A stretch of DNA of 64,000 bases, taken from assembly GCA_964016885.1 (NCBI GenBank), contig OZ024740.1:354578001-354642000 (forward strand). Direction: 5' to 3'. The notes under the pieces are model-generated. The model was not told the DNA's origin. It ran no database searches and was given only the letters and a program-made list of their open reading frames with translations. Shown piece after piece: positions 11,859 to 46,090 of this stretch; the stretch's first letter is position 1, and each line of letters begins with the position of its first letter. The position numbers and the translations under genes were made by a program. This stretch comes from Eledone cirrhosa (taxonomy: Eukaryota).

Positions 11859-12927
11859 CGAAGGAAATGTGGTAAGGAACCAGGTGGACCATAACGCACC
11901 AAAGTACTCAATACTTGAGGTAGTAGAGTGGGTAGTACCTTAGTACCCCCCCTCCCCTAGTCTTTGATAGATTTGGCGGACTCCGCCCTTTATAGCAGTT
12001 GGCTTAGACCCTTTTTCCGACCGCTCCCACTATTCTCTGTGCCCTCTATATTTCTTAGTGGCACTTATGCCTTATTTTTTCGTTTCAGTACTTCTTGCTT
12101 CGCTTTTCTTCTGGGCGGGGTGGATTCTGAATTTATTTCTCCGTATTCTACCTTTATTTCGTACGAACTTTCATGTAGCTTGTTTTAGATCCTTTAGAGT
12201 TAGCATTAGTATATATTTTTCTCGGGACTCAGAATTATTATCTCGTACAAGTTCACTTTGCTGCACTGGGTCGTTGCTGGCCCGGGATGGAAACCTTTAT
12301 TGTTTATTTCGTGGTAGTCTCTTTAGTATTTTGGCCCCTTTTGTTGACCCGTCACCGTATCATTTACGTACTTATACCTCTTAAAAGGGTCCTTGCCTTA
12401 TCCGTCCCACCTAGTTCTCTTACTTATTTCCTTATTTATTTATTTATTTATTTATTTACTTCTTCCTTTCTTTCTTTACTTTATTCTCGCCTAACAATAG
12501 CCTGACACCTAGGTCGTAGAATTTAATTTACTTTACTTTTTTCTTTACACTTATTTGCTTTTCTTCACTCTCAGTATTTTTTCTTTCCTATTTCTACCCC
12601 CCATTGTTCTACCTACCGTTCCGACTTCCTCCCCCTCCCCCTCCCCTGTATCTTCTTTGACCTCATGCCCAGCTGTAGCTGGCACTACCAACGCTTGATT
12701 GGGTCTACTCCACCCCCTCCCCTCTTTCTCCTACTGGCAGGTTTAGCCACCATCTCCCCTACTAATTTGCAACCACAGAATTACTACTGATTTTTGACAA
12801 TCACTTTGACCATATATGGAATTACCCCTTGAGAAGATCGGCTATTTAAATACCAGGATAAATTTTCATTTAGTCCAGAATTAGCCGTCGAAACGGCTTG
12901 AGCTCAGCTGTCGGGGTCTTACTGGTT

Positions 12928-12930: not shown

Positions 12931-12972
<42 letters not shown>

Positions 12973-13002
12973 ATTATGTAATAAACAACATAAGGCAATT
13001 AT

Positions 13003-13060
13003 TCCATTTACCAGTGGTTTCTTAAAAGCAAAAGGTTTTGCTTTCAATCCTCAGAATGAA
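13003..13060 (-). ncRNA. Type I hammerhead ribozyme (inverted copy)
   Basis: Reverse complement of 13088-13145. Confidence 0.88.
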
Positions 13061-13087
13061 AAATCCTGGTTTTGTAAACCAGGATTT

Positions 13088-13145
13088 TTCATTCTGAGGA
13101 TTGAAAGCAAAACCTTTTGCTTTTAAGAAACCACTGGTAAATGGA
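13088..13145 (+). ncRNA. Type I hammerhead ribozyme
   Basis: TTCATT-CTGAGGA-[TTGAAAGCAAA acct TTTGCTTTTAA]-GAAA-CCACTGG-TA^AATGGA. Confidence 0.88.
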
Positions 13146-13252
13146 ATAATTGCCTTATGTTGTTTATTACATAATAATAATAATTAAGCTCTGTTGCATA
13201 CATAGAGCACTCTTTTTTCCTGGACTTTTCCGATGGAATTACTTCATTTATA

Positions 13253-23492: not shown

Positions 23493-25120
23493 CTAATTAA
23501 GTTTATAATATTTGAAGGTTTTTCTAATTCTATGATTGCATGATATAATTAACTTCTGTAGCTTATTTAATAGGGTATCATTAGATTTCATGATTTCAAA
23601 TAGTTCTTGGCAGCATAACCTACACTCATATCTGCTATTTTGATAAGGGGTGGCCCTTTTGAGCACGCTCCAGGTCAGGTTGTAATCAATATCCCTCTTT
23701 CTATAATTATTAATTGTTTCAGCCAAGGAGGTTGTATTAACTAATGCAGCATTTTTAAAACTATGTTTGTGGGTATTAAATCTTACTTTAAATTGGTTAG
23801 ACGTAGCTCCTATATAGGATTGAGTGGAGTCCTTAGTACTAATTACATATTTATAGACTATGTTATTAATAAGACAATTTCCCTTTAATGGGCAATTTCT
23901 TTTGATTCTACAGTTACAGCCATTCGTATATATTGTATCAGGAGAGTTAATTGTGTTATCTATAGTGGTATTAGTGTTACTATTTTCATTAATGTATGGT
24001 TTAGAATGGGTTGTAATTAGATTAGTATGGTTAGACAGATTGTTGGTAGGTGATAGTTTAGGGGATGTGGAGCTAGTAGAGTTATGTTAGTCAAAAATTG
24101 ATGTGGAGTTATAGGTGAAGAAGAAGGTGGTTTGTTTTGGTTTATTTTAGTATTATTATGGTTGGTTTGATGTGTTGGTGGTATATTAATGGGTTTTTTA
24201 CACTTATATGTGTTGTATATTCTTATATTAGCACTTATATTCTGTTGTATATTCTTATAGCACTTATATTCTGTTGTATATTCTTAGTAGTGGAGTAGGA
24301 AAATTTGACAGTAGATCTGTTTAAAATTTGATGGTATTTATGGTTTGGTGGAAAGTTTTTCTCTAGTATAGCAAAGAATTTTTTAGGGATATGGTCTTTA
24401 ATCTGTAGATTAAATGGAGCATTATACCAAGTAACTCGTCTATTACGGTTTCAACATTGTTTCTTATATTTATATGATGTATCGGGAGGTTTACTGAGAG
24501 AGTTACTATTAGTGATTCTATTATATATAGGTTTAGTTAGATTAATTGATTTAGGTGTTTTCGTCTGATTACTAGGAATTTTGTTAGTTATGTTGTTGAC
24601 ATATGTTAGATTATTAGCGGGACTGGTTTTTTTAAAGTCATTATCTTTTATGTGAGAAAAGGTAGAGAAATTAAGTTCTGGGTTGGTGTTTTTTAGGTGT
24701 AGTATGAGTGTCATTTAGGTGTGGGTTTTTCATTTGGTGTTTGTTGGTAATATTAGGTTGTATGTTTGAAATATTATTGGTGCAAGGTATATAGACTAAT
24801 TTGTTCTTGTGGCCGCTTCTAGCTAAAGCTTCATTATAAAAGGGCGCGTTTTTATCGAATACATCCTGGTTAGATGAAAGGTTAGAAATTCTGAGTAAGA
24901 TATTATATGCTAGGTTTTTAAGGATAGATCTCGGGTGATTGGATTGTGAGTGTATGTAATGTAAGTTTTGGTTAGGTTTATGGTAAGGTTGGTAGATACC
25001 CGTAGATAAGTCCATAGTTATATCTAGGAAATTGACTATCTTACTGGTGTTTTCAAATGTAATAGTGAGATTATAATAGTCTTTCAGGAAAGTTCTAAGT
25101 TTTTATTTCTTTCAATTTCT
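23493..25120 (-). mobile_element. Penelope-like element resembling the Naiad clade (RT thumb, linker, C-terminal GIY-YIG), decayed; probable AT-rich 3' region down to about 22590
   Basis: NFLDITMDLSTGIYQPYHKPN..YIHSQSNHP; VTWYNAPF; CNC..CPLKGNCL..IVY..YIGATSNQFKVRFNTH..SF; LTWSVL..Y..CRLC..LLN..CNH. Confidence 0.88.
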
Positions 25121-25490: not shown

Positions 25491-25692
25491 CAAAGGAATT
25501 GTGGTAAGGAACCAGTTGGACCATAACGTGCCAGAGTACTCAATACTTAGGGTAGTAGAGTGGGAAATAGGAAAAAGTATGACCCCGACGGCAGAGCGCA
25601 AGCCGTTTCGACGGCTATTTCTGGACTAAATAGCCGTCCATAAATAGCTGTCGAAACGGCTTGAGCTCTGCCGTCGGGGTCATACTTCTTCC

Positions 25693-25695
<3 letters not shown>
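25491..25695 (-). mobile_element. Short fold-back copy of the 11857-12930 family: hammerhead 3' half on both arms plus tail
   Basis: Arms 25567-25620 and 25642-25695 contain TAGCYGTC-GAAA-CGGC..GCCG-TC-GGGGTC; tail 25491-25565 matches 11860-11932. Confidence 0.85.
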
Positions 25696-26454: not shown

Positions 26455-27426
26455 CTAGCAGTAAAGCCCGGCGTTGCTCGGGGTCGCTCAGTAGCTGTGT
26501 TAAAGTTACAATGTTAAGTTTCTTTCTTGGCTTAAAAACTGTAGAGTCTACTGTGCAGACTTGCATGTGGTGTTTTTGATTAATATTCCCTCAACCAACA
26601 ATATGCCTTATGAAGTTAAGAAAACATAACGATAACCCGAATGTTATAACAAAAGAGGATGCTGGGGATAGAAACTGCACTGGTTATTTATTAACAAAGA
26701 TCGAAAATGTAAACACTGCAACGCAGAGAAAAACATTAGCGTAACCAAATTATCAGTTATGTCTGTCTGCACGCCTATATCACCTCTCTGCACGACTGTC
26801 TGTCTGCACGCCTATATCACCTCTCTGCACGACTGTCTGTCTGCACGCCTATATCACCTCTCTGCACGACTATCTGTCTGCACGCCTATATCACCTCTCT
26901 GCACGACTATCTGTCTGCACGCGTATATCACCTCTCTGCACGACTGTCTGTCTGCACGACTGTCTGTCTGCACGCCTAACGACGAAATATTTGCTTGTTT
27001 TACGTAGTCTTTAAATAGACTTGTTTTCAAGTAAAAATATTGTTTTAAAATGCTTTTAAATGGAAATGAAGCAAAACGGAAGCTTAGTGTTCGAACTGAT
27101 GAATTTTGCAGGTCAATATTTTGCTGGCTCGACGACTGTTAATGTCATTTTAAACGCTGAGAAAGCCAGCGTAATTTTTTACGTAAGACGCTCAATGTAA
27201 ACAGAACAAAGGGAAATAACTGATAACTTACGCTCAAAAATCGATACATTATATTCGATTTCGTCACATAGGGTGGGTCAATTTGAAATTTTTTTTTTCC
27301 GATGTCTTCGCTCGGGCTCAATGTACAAGTATAGCAATTTCGGTGCAATTCCGTGAGAGATTCTAAGAGGAGATGTGTGCCAAAAATCGATAGACAGACA
27401 GACAACCACAGTTTTATATATATAGA
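26455..27426 (-). mobile_element. Non-autonomous Helitron-like element
   Basis: Minus strand: A|TC start, (CTGT)n near the 5' end, 3' hairpin CCCGAGC-AAC-GCCGGG then CTAG|T; no TSD. Confidence 0.85.
26760..26977. repeat. 37-bp minisatellite (about 5.5 units) inside the Helitron
   Basis: Unit CTGTCTGTCTGCACGCCTATATCACCTCTCTGCACGA. Confidence 0.95.
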
Positions 27427-27751
27427 TTAGTGATTGTATGGGTTAGTATTCAGTTGTGGTTTTAAGTTTTTAAGTTTTTACCGGTTGCGCATTTCTAAAT
27501 GCTTTTCAAAAATAATTTTGAGATAGAGTGTCCGTGTTGTTTGCTCTGATCTGTATATATATATATATCCTATACATACATATATATATATATCCTATAC
27601 ATACATATACATATATTTCAAATGCATACATATATACATATATATATATACACACCACATATACATACACATATATTTTTCTACATACATAAATATATAT
27701 ATACATATATATATATATATTTTTTTTTTATTTTTTTTATTTTATAGAAGG

Positions 27752-27802
27752 AGCTTCTACAGGACTAGTACTGTTTCATTCAGATGAAATCTTCAGGAAG
27801 CT
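27752..27802 (-). ncRNA. Type I hammerhead ribozyme (inverted copy)
   Basis: Reverse complement of 27931-27981. Confidence 0.88.
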
Positions 27803-27930
27803 GGGTGTCATATTAAGTTCTGGTATTTATACATTTAGGTAGTGGTAAGGGAGGGGGTCCCCCCCCCCCCAGCCACCCCCTCCCTTACCACTACCTAAAT
27901 GTATAAATACCAGAACTTAATATGACACCC

Positions 27931-27981
27931 AGCTTCCTGAAGATTTCATCTGAATGAAACAGTACTAGTCCTGTAGAAGCT
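27931..27981 (+). ncRNA. Type I hammerhead ribozyme
   Basis: AGCTTC-CTGAAGA-[tTTCatctGAAt]-GAAA-CAG-tactagtc-CTG-TA^GAAGCT. Confidence 0.88.
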
Positions 27982-28067
27982 CCTTCTATAAAATAAAAAA
28001 ATTTTACTCTGCCATGTATTGAGTACCTTACTTACTGTGGTTATCCCCGACTCAACCCGGGACCTAC

Positions 28068-28122
<55 letters not shown>

Positions 28123-28125
<3 letters not shown>

Positions 28126-30395
28126 TCATCATCATCATCATCAACGTTTAACGTCCGTGTTCCACGCTTGCATGGGTTTGGACGGGGGTAGTCCCACTTG
28201 AGGCAAGAGTGATTGTCTTGCTCGCATAGGACTGTCTGGCAGGTTTTCTACAGTTGGATGCCCTTCCTAACACCAACCACATTTACAGTGTGGGTCTGGG
28301 AGGTTTTTACCGTGTTGCCTACACGGCCACATTACAGCGTGGACTGTGTGTTTTTTTGTCGTGACACCTACACGATCTCATTTGTTTCGGCCTGGATGGC
28401 GCGGCACCAACATAACTTTACATAGAACGGGGTGGTGTGGATGGGGTGGGGGTGGTGGCGGGACGGGGTGTAGTTTGTTAGAGATGCCTACTGGCAAGGC
28501 GGGTCTTCTCTGTTACTGAGTACCGCCAAAGGTCACGGTCCAGTGACATTGTCTTGGAGAGGTGTAAGTGTGTGAGGTCGGAGTTTATCAGCTCATCCCA
28601 TGTTTTTCTAGGTCTGCCTATTCCGTGGCTACCGTCTATCTTTATTGCCCTGCACTTTGTAATACAGCTATCGACTTTCATGCGCATCACGTGTCCATAC
28701 CAACGCAGCCTTCTCTCGAGTAAACAACATCTGATCCCTCTTATCTCTAATTTTTTCCTTAGTTCGTTTATGCTTTGCCGTTCACGTATATTACTGTTAC
28801 ACATCCAGCGGAGCATGCAAGCTTCGTTCCTCTCTAGTCTGCGTATATCCTCTGCACACAATGCCCAGGTCTCACTACCATGCAACATTGCTGTTCGTAT
28901 GCAGGCATCGTACAACCTGCCTTTCATTTTTAGGGAGAACCCTTTAGCAGCTAATAGTGGTATAAGCTCTCTGAACTTTTTCCAACCAGTTCTGACTCTA
29001 GCTACAGTACTTTCAGAGCACCCTCCCCAACTGCTGATTTTATCGCCCAGGTAACGGAAGCTGTCCACTATTTCTATAGAACCCTCTGCGCAATTGAAAG
29101 AGCTAGTATTTTGTGGGCACTTGCTGCTACTTATTGCACCAGAACACTGGCCACATGTAAAGTCTATGTTCTTAGTTAGCTTACCTGTGATCCCACTACA
29201 TCTTTTATGCACCCATACTTTGCATTTAGGACATAAGATGGAGTTTCTACCTACGCCTTTCCTACATACCGAGCACGACCATTTCCCAGAAGGGACCGCC
29301 GCCTTGTTTTCTTTCCTACAAACTAGAACTTTGGTCTTAGCCAGGTTAATTTTAAGTCCTTTTGACTCTAGGCCGTGCTTCCATGTTTGGAATTTCTTCT
29401 CTAGCTCGGCCATTGATTCCGCTATGAGTGTCAGGTCGTCTGCGTATAGGAGTTCCCATGGGCAGCCTGTCTTGAACTCCTCTGTTATAGCCTGAAGGGC
29501 AATAATAAATAGTAGGGGGCTGAGAACAGAGCCCTGATGGACGCCAACTTTTACGCTAAACTCTTCACTATATTCGTTGTTAATTCTAACCTTGCTGACT
29601 GTTTCTTTATACATGGCTTGTATAGCCCTCACAAGCCATTCGTCAACGCCTAGTTTTCTAAGAGCCCACCAGATAATGGAGCGGGAGACTCTGTCGAAGG
29701 CTTTCTCCAGGTCGACAAAAGCTAAGTAGAGGGGTTTACCTTTAGCTAGGTACTTCTCCTGTAGTTGTCGTACTATGAAAAGAGCGTCTGTGGTACTTTT
29801 GCCTGACACAAACCCGAACTGCATTTCATCTAGATCAATTCTCTCTCTGATTAGTTGCGCTATTACTTTTTCCGTGACCTTCATGACCTGGTCGATTAAT
29901 TTAATGCCTCTATAGTTACTCCTATCTAGGGCGTCTCCTTTACCCTTATAACAGTTAACGATGATGCTGCTATGCCAGTCCTTCGGAACAACCCCATTCT
30001 GTACGACTTGGTTAACTATGCGGGTGACCATGGTGTGTCCCACCGTGCCAGATGCCTTCAGCATCTCAGCAACTATTTCCGAAGGCCCAGCCGCCTTACC
30101 AGTCTTCATATCCTTGATTGCCTTACTTATTATACTCCCCTCGACTAACACTGCTGGTCCCTCTATCGGGTCGATATGGGGGAGACTGTCTTTCTCCCAT
30201 TTATTCTCCTCATTTAGTAGCCTTTCATAGTGACACTTCCAAGCTACCTTCTTATCAGTGTCGGTGATGGCAAGTATGCCATCATCGTTAAGTACACACT
30301 TCTCCCCGACAATATCACGGTTTTCCTTGACGCATTGCCTGGCAATCCTGAACACCTCACGTTTTTGGTCATCGCGTTGTAGAACATGCTTGAAC
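28123..30395 (-). mobile_element. Young 5'-truncated RTE LINE with 3'UTR and (GAT)n tail
   Basis: Open ORF, complete 3'UTR, (CAT)n on the plus strand at about 28123-28141, (TA)-rich flanks. Confidence 0.97.
28478..30355 (-). CDS. RTE reverse transcriptase ORF (625 aa, no endonuclease in this copy) with embedded PHD-type finger
   Basis: [50 protein letters not shown]4HC3, FRYLG, RLRWYGHV, GRPRKTW all in one frame; the start codon is only the first available one after truncation. Confidence 0.9.
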   Translation of the reverse strand: MFRIARQCVKENRDIVGEKCVLNDDGILAITDTDKKVAWKCHYERLLNEENKWEKDSLPHIDPIEGPAVLVEGSIISKAIKDMKTGKAAGPSEIVAEMLKASGTVGHTMVTRIVNQVVQNGVVPKDWHSSIIVNCYKGKGDALDRSNYRGIKLIDQVMKVTEKVIAQLIRERIDLDEMQFGFVSGKSTTDALFIVRQLQEKYLAKGKPLYLAFVDLEKAFDRVSRSIIWWALRKLGVDEWLVRAIQAMYKETVSKVRINNEYSEEFSVKVGVHQGSVLSPLLFIIALQAITEEFKTGCPWELLYADDLTLIAESMAELEKKFQTWKHGLESKGLKINLAKTKVLVCRKENKAAVPSGKWSCSVCRKGVGRNSILCPKCKVWVHKRCSGITGKLTKNIDFTCGQCSGAISSSKCPQNTSSFNCAEGSIEIVDSFRYLGDKISSWGGCSESTVARVRTGWKKFRELIPLLAAKGFSLKMKGRLYDACIRTAMLHGSETWALCAEDIRRLERNEACMLRWMCNSNIRERQSINELRKKLEIRGIRCCLLERRLRWYGHVMRMKVDSCITKCRAIKIDGSHGIGRPRKTWDELINSDLTHLHLSKTMSLDRDLWRYSVTEKTRLASRHL

Positions 30396-44400: not shown

Positions 44401-45149
44401 GTCTTGTTTGCTATTCTATTATTTTTTTTACTATCAATTACAGATTCTATCAATATTCAAATTCCGATACTGCTCACAAAACTTCTGATTGCTCACCATT
44501 TTTTTGCAGATGTGCTCACTGCTCAAACAAGAACTGAAATTACCCAATGGTTGCCAAAACCACCCAATAAATGTAGAGTCTCCATGGTGTGGTTTCTTCT
44601 GTTAATATTTCACACTTAAATTGCTATTATTTTTGTAGCAGAATTGATAGAGCGTCGGACAACATGCTTAGCGGCATAGAGTCACCGCCCTTTATGTTCT
44701 GAGTTCAAATCTCACCAACATTAGCTTTGCCTTTCATCCTTACAGGGTCAATAAAATAAAGTACCAGTAATGCTCTGGGGTCGATTTAATCAACTTTCCC
44801 TTCTCCTTCAAATTGCTGGCCTTGTGCCTAAAGTAGAAAGAATTATTTTTTGCTTTTATTTTTTTTAAATACCTTCTTAGTTGTATAAAATTATAATACA
44901 ACATATAATTTTGCTCTGGAATTTTTGTAGTCTGTAAATTAATTTGAAAGAAGAAAAATTATATTAAAAGTATTTTGAAATGGAAATTGGTTGTCACACG
45001 CAATGTCCAAATTCGGGTAGCATAATCACTTCTTTAATGTAATGTATTTACAATAAGATCAACATAATCAGCAGTAGCAACAGAACCAACATCTAATAAC
45101 TCTTGTTGTTGTTTAGCCTCAGGTCAGCTCCTGGCTGAACAACATCAAG

Positions 45150-46090
45150 TAGTAGTGGTGGTGGTGGTGGTGGTGCCTGTGGTGGCAGTGGTGGTGGTGG
45201 TGGTGGTGGTGGTGCCTGTGGTGGCAGTGGTGGTGGTGGTGGTGGTGGTGGTGCCTGTGGTGGCAGTGGTGGTGGTGGTGGTGGTGGTGCCTGCGATGAC
45301 AGTGGTGGTGGTGGTGATGATAGTAGTACCTGTGGTGACAGTGGTGGTGGTGGGGGTAGGGTGGTGATGGGGGTGGGGGTGCATGTGGTGACAGGGGGGG
45401 GGCTGTGGTGACAGGGGGGGTGACAGTGGTGGTGGTGGTGGTGGTGCCTGTGGTGGTGGTGGTGGTGCCTGTGGTGACAGTGGTGGTAGTGCCTGTGGTG
45501 GTGGTGGTGGTGCCTGTGGTGGCAGTGGTGGTGGTGGTGGTGGTGGTGCCTGTGGTGGCAGTGGTGGTGGTGGTGGTGGTGGTGGTGCCTGTGGTGGCAG
45601 TGGTGGTGGTGGTGGTGCCTGTGGTGGCAGTGGTGGTGGTGGTGGTGGTGGTGGTGGTGGTGGTGCCTGTGGTGGCAGTGGTGGTGGTGGTGGTGGTGGT
45701 GCCTGTGGTGGCGGTGGTGGTGGTGGTGGTGGTGGTGGTGCCTGTGGTGGCAGTGGTGGTGGTGGTGGTGGTGGTGCCTGTGGTGGCAGTGGTGGTGGTG
45801 GTGGTGGTGGTGGTGCCTGTGGTGGCAGTGGTGGTGGTGGTGGTGGTGGTGGTGCCTGTGGTGGCAGTGGTGGTGGTGGTGGTGGTGCCTGTGGTGACAG
45901 TGGTGGTGGTGGTGGTGGTGGTGGTGCCTGTGGTGGCAGTGGTGGTGGTGGTGGTGGTGGTGCCTGTGGTGGCAGTGGTGGTGGTGGTGGTGGTGGTGGT
46001 GCCTGTGGTGGCAGTGGTGGTGGTGGTGGTGGTGGTGGTGCCTGTGGTGGCAGTGGTGGTGGTGGTGGTGGTGCCTGTGGTGGCAGTAGT
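45150..46090. repeat. Compound minisatellite (GTG)n-CCTGTGGTGGCA
   Basis: Direct reading. Confidence 0.97.

Follow-up and report, generated by a model that had tools for sequence, protein, structure and literature searches.

The window (the whole 64-kb stretch of DNA analysed here) carries a perfect fold-back element at 27720–28068. An inverted-repeat search of the window returned two arms, 27732–27858 and 27875–28001, of 127 nt each, which are 100% complementary and separated by a gap of 16 nt, in agreement with the mismatch-free arms reported in the preliminary description, and which fold into a rod of −244 kcal/mol (z = −32) that none of 100 shuffles equals. Throughout, we number from +1 at 27931, the first base of stem I of the plus-strand hammerhead motif, which places the predicted ribozyme cut at +45 and the end of the tail at +138. 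The short arm (27732–27858, minus strand), delimited by the inverted-repeat search and by the outer ends seen across the family, is an inverted pseudo-LTR copy that runs from −56 to +71 and has no tail. Its outer end is extended by an A-rich run of ~12 bases (27720–27731, minus strand; T-rich on the plus strand, read from the sequence), likely slippage at priming site 1, and expanded A-runs akin to it are seen in L132, L138 and L166. The tail arm shares 27875–28001 (plus strand, from the same search) with the short arm, and the two meet at a junction (27858–27874, plus strand) that comprises, by sequence and locus comparison, a 1-nt overlap at 27858 and the C-rich parent sequence forming the 16-nt loop. 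This spacer is part of the right arm (compare L001 and L099), whose 5′ truncation point lies at about −72; the core of the bounds first proposed stands, with the ~12 bases added on the left and the spacer assigned to the right arm.

Within the tail arm, a TATAAAT at 27902–27908 (plus strand, −29) is the putative promoter of the element, judging from mapped family copies and from the spacing in a sister family and in a second family. Its mirror image, a TATA-like box at 27825–27831 (minus strand), stands 29 nt above the short arm's own +1 at 27802. The preliminary description had recognized the hammerhead in each arm and had missed this box, 29 nt above stem I. Further down come an A-rich putative priming site 1 (27990–28006, plus strand, +60 to +76), where short arms stop family-wide in mapped copies, and the tail (28002–28068, plus strand), which comparison with full copies identifies as the element's 5′ UTR up to a putative priming site 2 at +138. 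The tail is one-sided, as first described, and measures 67 nt rather than ~70; in full copies it runs on, and the ORF begins about 50 nt further. The whole feature is embedded in (TA)n, as had been noted, a repeat that would mask any target-site duplication, with a degenerate (TA)n target on the left (27554–27719, from sequence and repeat search) and (TA)27 on the right (28069–28123, from repeat search and full copies), the first bases of which also match the parent's continuation.

Two further palindromes of this sort, from other families, lie within the same 64-kb window. Family 2, present at 25567–25695 and at about 12850–12921 and represented by L292–L294, is another Hydra-like Penelope-like element (PLE) with the same mini-palindromes, a unit of about 3.1 kb and 9,790 exact 35-mer matches. 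A third family accounts for the third perfect head-to-head palindrome, at 12966–13182, which has 107-nt arms, a 3-nt loop and a hammerhead on each strand with a CUGAGGA core and a long stem II. Type I hammerheads of at least six more, unrelated families turn up in the flanks of analysed loci, often nested in the same (TA)n. The (TA)n of the window feature is bordered directly on its right by the 3′-terminal part of a LINE (28124–30394, minus strand), which contains an RT frame of 638 aa, ends in a short trinucleotide tail and is taken to be RTE-like; the window holds several more copies of it. Pieces of a further PLE ORF, recognizable by a CNC...CPL linker and a GIY-YIG motif, lie at 23493–25102 (minus strand), a young 37-bp minisatellite (5.4 copies, 98%) at 26760–26958, and a 39-bp G-rich array of about 25 copies at 45148–46073.

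On each strand of the palindrome, a pairing-checked descriptor found the type I hammerhead motif that had been claimed, a predicted ribozyme, with matches at 27937 (plus) and 27796 (minus). On the plus strand the motif spans 27931–27981, its first base being the putative transcription start, with a predicted cut after 27975; its mirror on the minus strand spans 27752–27802, with a predicted cut between 27758 and 27757. It is built from a 6-bp stem I, CUGAAGA, a U.U-flanked 3-bp stem II, GAA, a 4-bp stem III with a palindromic loop, and a GUA cleavage triplet at 27973–27975, and so presents the type I core of CUGANGA, GAA and UH together with stems I–III. The descriptor gave 405 matches in 1.44 Mb, a set made up by selection mostly of the PLE family of the window feature, versus 0 in one block shuffle. 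The search with Rfam hammerhead models that had been proposed as a check returned no hammerhead match for the window element at E up to 1 or up to 10, just hairpin-driven miRNA matches, all below gathering score, and these models appear not to cover the minimal form found here. Its layout of CUGAAGAU...UGAA with an ACAG/CUGU stem III is listed for Hydra-clade PLEs in file S2 of Craig 2021 (PMC8557442), and stem I of the sister family shows compensatory changes (AGATTC/GAATCT versus AGCTTC/GAAGCT).

Fold predictions bear on what these motifs could do. Pairing through the palindromic loop III favours a dimer, as had been suggested, with a cofold energy of −30.0 versus −19.6 kcal/mol for two monomers, and the hammerhead monomer has a fold probability of 0.001. 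In read-through RNA the rod wins and every hammerhead stem pair has a probability of about 0, which makes it unlikely that host pre-mRNAs are cleaved as had been proposed. Transcripts of the element's own would, given two outward-facing TATA boxes, start with the hammerhead and exit the element, and so would not form the rod. The hammerheads in the window copy are probably passengers; those in the parent would likely cut as dimers. Given transcription of the locus, 127-bp dsRNA from the window copy is possible, as is a dsRNA/ADAR route for the palindrome. No host exon is evident among the 81 window ORFs of at least 110 aa, in which just LINE and PLE fragments and repeats were recognized.

The arm plus tail match the end of a 4.25-kb PLE, the parent, and correspond to its pseudo-LTR and 5′ UTR, which bears out the PLE origin suggested earlier. 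Two units, L059 (4,251 bp) and L060 (4,267 bp), each carry the window arm and tail at both ends, that is, the same end twice, 4.25 kb apart, as pseudo-LTRs in partial tandem, and in the 5′ one the tail sequence continues into the ORF. By this comparison the window feature consists of two 5′-truncated copies of the element end placed head to head, and the inverted partial pseudo-LTR that had been postulated is confirmed. Walking upstream from window-type ends, we find a 1.9-kb microsatellite-rich 3′ UTR and then the ORF; this 3′ UTR accounts for the length of the parent unit and consists in L059 and L060 for the most part of (TA)n, (TG)n and (ATTT)n, which means that the element disseminates the very repeat it targets.

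The coding capacity of the family is seen in one copy, L310, where an uninterrupted 814-aa RT-endonuclease frame lies just downstream of a stretch 95% identical to 210 nt of the window. Its YRDD at 347 and VY...YIG at 587–605 reveal an RT followed by a C-terminal GIY-YIG domain, the arrangement of EN+ PLEs, and regular expressions further locate RWR at 38, DKT at 116, CNCPDKTTC at 567 (the CxCX5C linker) and N...CMH at 686; CDLCISE (CxxC before E) was read by eye, one Cys lies inside the GIY-YIG core, and there is no CCHH. Pfam gave nothing significant on three fragments of the window family's ORF; in homologues at 41–42% identity GIY-YIG scored above and RVT_1 below the cut-off. Of the 120 homologues listed, 119 bear uninformative names. 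The motifs of L310 agree with the criteria given for the Hydra clade in PMC8557442, which would make the parent a Hydra-clade-like PLE. An assignment to the Neptune clade was considered and dropped against the published clade criteria (PMC8557442). The (TA)n insertion and canonical hammerhead of the Hydra clade are both found here, GTATA following 93 of 98 tail ends in a count whose search pattern itself required the first TA bases; the 4.25-kb unit departs from the clade's 'generally under 3 kb', which is a descriptive tendency and not diagnostic. A sister family of ~77% protein identity has many uninterrupted 758-aa frames (for example G000:C2:347035618-347037096), far more than the window family, and is a candidate helper in trans.

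The genome-wide search for copies and for a parent, another of the checks proposed, thus yielded L310 and, in the 3.0-Gb genome, 1,498 exact tail ends and 1,393 copies of an exact 49-nt core. Sampling rests mostly on the first 252 Mb of contig C1 and on exact-match copies. All of the first 30 loci end at the last base of the tail, followed by (TA)n, and differ in their 5′ ends. Divergence from the window copy averages 1.4% over 52 nt in 73 of 98 copies, and its arm plus tail are 100% identical to six other loci, which upholds the claim of recent insertion. The junction in the window is unique among the 40 scored of 879 candidate loci, and four loci with palindromes of similar size have junctions different from it. 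We conclude that the window locus is a real but ordinary PLE product.

The ends of the arms follow a rule across the family. In a hammerhead-selected set of 84 loci, 55 of 59 inverted pairs have one tail end and one A-rich short end, the four exceptions being three short/short and one tail/tail pair. Short arms end on the outside between +60 and +76 in 66 of 70 cases, under a filter that admitted +39 to +110. An inverted partner is present at 70 of 98 tail ends and was found at none of the other 28, in a search that covered at most 1.5 kb of upstream sequence at some loci. Inner ends were mapped at the same 98 sites, which are the first 100 tail ends of contig C1 less two that a 1-base probe shift caused to be missed, and here both arms lie inside +1 at 58, both extend upstream at nine and the two differ at three (Fisher p = 8e-9). 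The commonest copy type is therefore, at 58 of 98, a promoterless mini-palindrome, and most of these end within a few bases of +1: arm 5′ ends at 0 to +5 number 44 for tail arms and 42 for short arms, as against 0 and 1 at −13 to −1. Near the ribozyme cut (+41 to +50) the counts are two and 0. We also considered cleaved RNA as the template and rejected it, given that just 2 of 98 tail arms begin near the cut. Genome-wide, the junction falls inside the 5′ part of the hammerhead at about 680 loci (678 and 688 strand matches, head to head), and 736 arms begin exactly at +1 versus 497 that keep the upstream 30-mer.

This variety speaks against the proposal, made in the preliminary description, of a non-coding, rod-folding element with ribozymes on both strands that is transcribed and re-mobilized in trans like a retrozyme. 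Such a unit would fit the recurrence of some mini-palindrome junctions (perfect AGCT pairs, for instance, make up 17 of the first 100 among 736 rows), the similar-sized palindromes at four other loci and the two TATA boxes that the window copy retains. Yet the junctions of those four loci all differ, the recurrent junction types have the tail on either side, the mini-palindromes lack a TATA box, no tandem monomers are present at the locus, and the hammerheads are predicted not to form in the rod. Since arm lengths and junctions vary by locus and the sequence is the end of a coding element, we hold mobilization as such a unit to be very improbable.

Two priming events on sense RNA account better for how the arms are joined. 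Among 40 parsed junctions (of 98 sites), the tail arm is the longer at 17, the short arm at 14, and the two are equal at nine; 20 of the junctions overlap by 1–4 nt, four are blunt and 16 contain inserts. In L144, L151, L167, L168, L169 and L172, inserts of 5–14 nt look copied from nearby hammerhead sequence and presumably resemble polymerase-theta-type templated insertions. In 8 of 58 mini-palindromes the tail arm starts at +53 to +88, which leaves the two arms with little or no overlap, a geometry known from classical twin priming. The two arms of a locus share sequence variants: 83 pairs gave 48 A/A, five C/C, 0 A/C and two other mismatches, with 28 unscored, and for an upstream variant 30 pairs gave 15 A/A, six G/G and two discordant, with seven unscored (2 of 23 scored long pairs differ); both sets were deduplicated by sequence context, and one locus may therefore count twice. 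Illumina reads of another sample contain four opposite-strand joints of this same geometry, in which +4 to +22 is joined to +76 to +84; these reads were admitted from 88% likeness, so that sister families may contribute, and they bear on joint geometry, not on transcription, strand or ends.

Perfect palindromes are a known read artefact, and an assembly or long-read chimera at the window locus had to be weighed on that account. The asymmetry of the structure, with its tail on one side and a 16-nt loop, the same rule at hundreds of loci, and the presence of opposite-strand joints in Illumina reads of another sample all argue against a chimera, to which we give next to no credence.

A more substantial competitor is self-priming, whether by fold-back of the cDNA or by an antisense template that primes itself, as proposed for rotifer PLEs (PMC3846280). 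In its favour, the window copy has identical arms and truncation points just 16 nt apart with a 1-nt overlap, variants are usually common to both arms, and 20 of 40 junctions show 1–4 nt microhomology. However, at 14 of 40 junctions the tail-less arm reaches further 5′, which fold-back of a tail-primed cDNA could give only with later deletion, the arms of 8 of 58 mini-palindromes share little or no sequence, and an antisense template leaves unexplained why the two arms should both end 29 nt downstream of a TATA box on the sense strand. We therefore regard self-priming as unlikely to make the inversion.

The TATAAAT lies 29 nt above +1 in the window family; in the sister family a TATA stands at −30 in two of three copies that keep the region, the third being a variant, and in family 2 TATTTAAA lies at −29 relative to that family's own boundary. 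Read by eye, the family 2 hammerhead has a U3-A8 variant core, for which Rfam gave no hammerhead match, and a 45-nt loop II that holds both the TATA box and the boundary of the mini-palindromes, so that RNA started there would hold half a ribozyme and read-through RNA a whole one. Because this boundary falls inside loop II at the same TATA spacing, it follows the promoter and not the ribozyme edge. We infer from these sequence patterns that +1 is the 5′ end of the RNA and that the template is uncleaved RNA. Read depth steps across +1 by about 50-fold in X1 and 30- to 50-fold in X21, figures in which overlapping contigs and sister families at 88% likeness are pooled, so that they do not represent copy numbers. 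The base before +1, read by eye in the first 100 of 736 rows, is G in 45, A in 53 (34 of them in perfect palindromes) and T in two; an extra G before the start would mark a copied cap (PMC9341517). A test for such a G on the mapped sites gave a binomial p of 0.001, a statistic that ignores templated inserts, and microhomology and templated inserts predict G and A before +1 as well. Family 2 has no G excess before its boundary (one G of three arms).

With dual priming otherwise as described, the same boundary could instead mark a splice acceptor or reflect stalling of RT at the hammerhead structure. AG stands at +1/+2 in both the window family and family 2, giving YAG at −1/+2 here, upstream of which CTTAAT resembles a branch point; the AG of family 2 is preceded by a run of pyrimidines, and a D. 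virilis intron ends at helix I (PMC4209133). Against this, arm starts are most frequent at +1, so that the A is included (28 parsed arm starts at +1, 12 at +2 and five at +3, beside the 736 genome-wide), a common upstream exon is absent from the 40 parsed junctions, and the family 2 boundary lies off the ribozyme edge, inside loop II, with the TATA spacing unchanged. We consider a splice acceptor or stall quite unlikely. The family 2 boundary is less sharp, from −3 to +11 in 21 junctions, which counts against the reading given next, as do the four pairs of 59 that break the rule for the ends and the two discordant long pairs of 23.

Taken together, the window feature is a 5′-truncated head-to-head double copy of a Hydra-like Penelope end in (TA)n, and we think it probable that it arose when the element's protein cut both strands and primed RT twice, at the A-rich site and at the end of the tail, the cDNA 3′ ends then likely being joined. 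Transcription of the element would start at +1, and its protein, probably dimeric, would cut both strands of (TA)n; one cut strand would prime cDNA at the A-rich site and its counterpart at the end of the tail, both through a TA-like overlap with the target. A single pseudo-LTR copy, probably on one RNA, would template both cDNAs, with overlapping mini-palindromes needing strand displacement or two RNAs from one source, and the cDNAs would be joined via microhomology or templated inserts. If started on the 5′ pseudo-LTR, they would reach the end of the RNA after about 65 and 138 nt and leave a promoterless palindrome of about 200 bp; if started on the 3′ pseudo-LTR, they would yield longer copies. 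The window copy would be of the latter kind, with arms to −56 and about −72 that stopped early in a C-rich tract, which would explain why it retains two outward-facing TATA boxes.

Much of this geometry has precedents. In L1 twin priming both cut strands prime cDNA on one RNA, which leaves a 5′ inversion joined by microhomology; the second L1 primer anneals anywhere, giving pieces without overlap, whereas here the starts are fixed and the arms usually overlap into palindromes. Inverted 5′-truncated copies with a one-sided tail are standard for PLEs (PMC8557442), and opposite-strand hammerhead pairs were noted in 2014 by Cervera and De la Pena (PMC4209133), whose dual minimal hammerheads, 100–700 bp apart, are likewise close, on opposite strands and ascribed to truncated PLEs; they are a brief remark there on Schistosoma, which goes into neither junctions nor mechanism. 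For rotifer PLEs a TATA plus initiator in the pseudo-LTR has been proposed (PMC3846280), and Penelope has a TATA-less internal promoter (PMC2377424). An explicit model for PLE inversion, that of Arkhipova 2013, is self-priming on an antisense template (PMC3846280), and the origin of head-to-head ends and one-sided tails is stated to be open both by Craig 2021 (PMC8557442) and by Frangieh 2024 (PMC11167929).

Two published systems come closest. The Hydra clade of Craig et al. 2021 (PMC8557442), which includes Hydra-1_Obim of Octopus bimaculoides, shares with the parent the C-terminal GIY-YIG, RWR, DKT and CxCX5C without CCHH, a canonical hammerhead with CUGAAGAU...UGAA, the (TA)n target, and an inverted 5′-truncated copy with a tail at one end. 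The element here differs in its 4.25-kb unit, in a tail of 67 nt versus 30–40, in a hammerhead unlike the one listed for Hydra-1_Obim, and in a majority product of promoterless mini-palindromes, which we did not find mentioned there. With the protein of Anolis Poseidon (PAc; Frangieh et al. 2024, PMC11167929), both strands of an AT-rich target were cleaved and extended in vitro, with uncleaved RNA as substrate and two internal RT starts that bound the tail, all as proposed here. PAc belongs to a different clade and its ORF overlaps the hammerhead, whereas the ORF here starts about 190 nt after +1; the main text of that paper leaves head-to-head insertions unexplained and reports no run-off copies (PMC11167929). 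Since both strands used the same start sites in vitro, the one-tail/one-short rule needs an extra constraint. Non-LTR retrozymes (bioRxiv 10.64898/2026.07.22.740005; PMC7229834) are also non-coding, derived from PLE pseudo-LTRs and equipped with type I hammerheads, but are head-to-tail tandems giving circular RNA, as described in those sources, whereas the window feature is a head-to-head single unit from a family with variable junctions, and its locus holds no tandem array.

Earlier publications thus already contain both the tailed, inverted pseudo-LTRs and the pairs of hammerheads on opposite strands, and what is new is the family-wide pattern of ends and junctions. We found in the open literature no description of run-off mini-palindromes or of fixed-site twin priming in PLEs, with the qualification that the supplementary genomic end mapping of PMC11167929 may bear on this. 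About 1,500 young insertions have ends and junctions that favour two sense-template priming events, mark the likely transcription start to the base, and form a pattern in which cleaved RNA rarely if ever templates, making an open question of PLE transposition directly testable, also in the existing in vitro system. For annotation, MITE, retrozyme and viroid-like unit are wrong labels for such palindromes. We further put forward, as a proposition we would neither back nor bet against, that Hydra-clade Penelope elements transpose by obligatory twin priming, in which a protein dimer would start two cDNAs, one from each DNA strand, at two fixed sites of a single RNA that is capped and uncleaved. 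Those begun on the 5′ pseudo-LTR would extend to the cap and run off, and so produce promoterless hammerhead palindromes en masse, and several such families would have seeded thousands of perfect hairpins in (TA)n. If this is true, the promoterless palindromes would be the PLE counterpart of strong-stop DNA, and the hairpins might contribute dsRNA on a large scale to editing and silencing in this genome.
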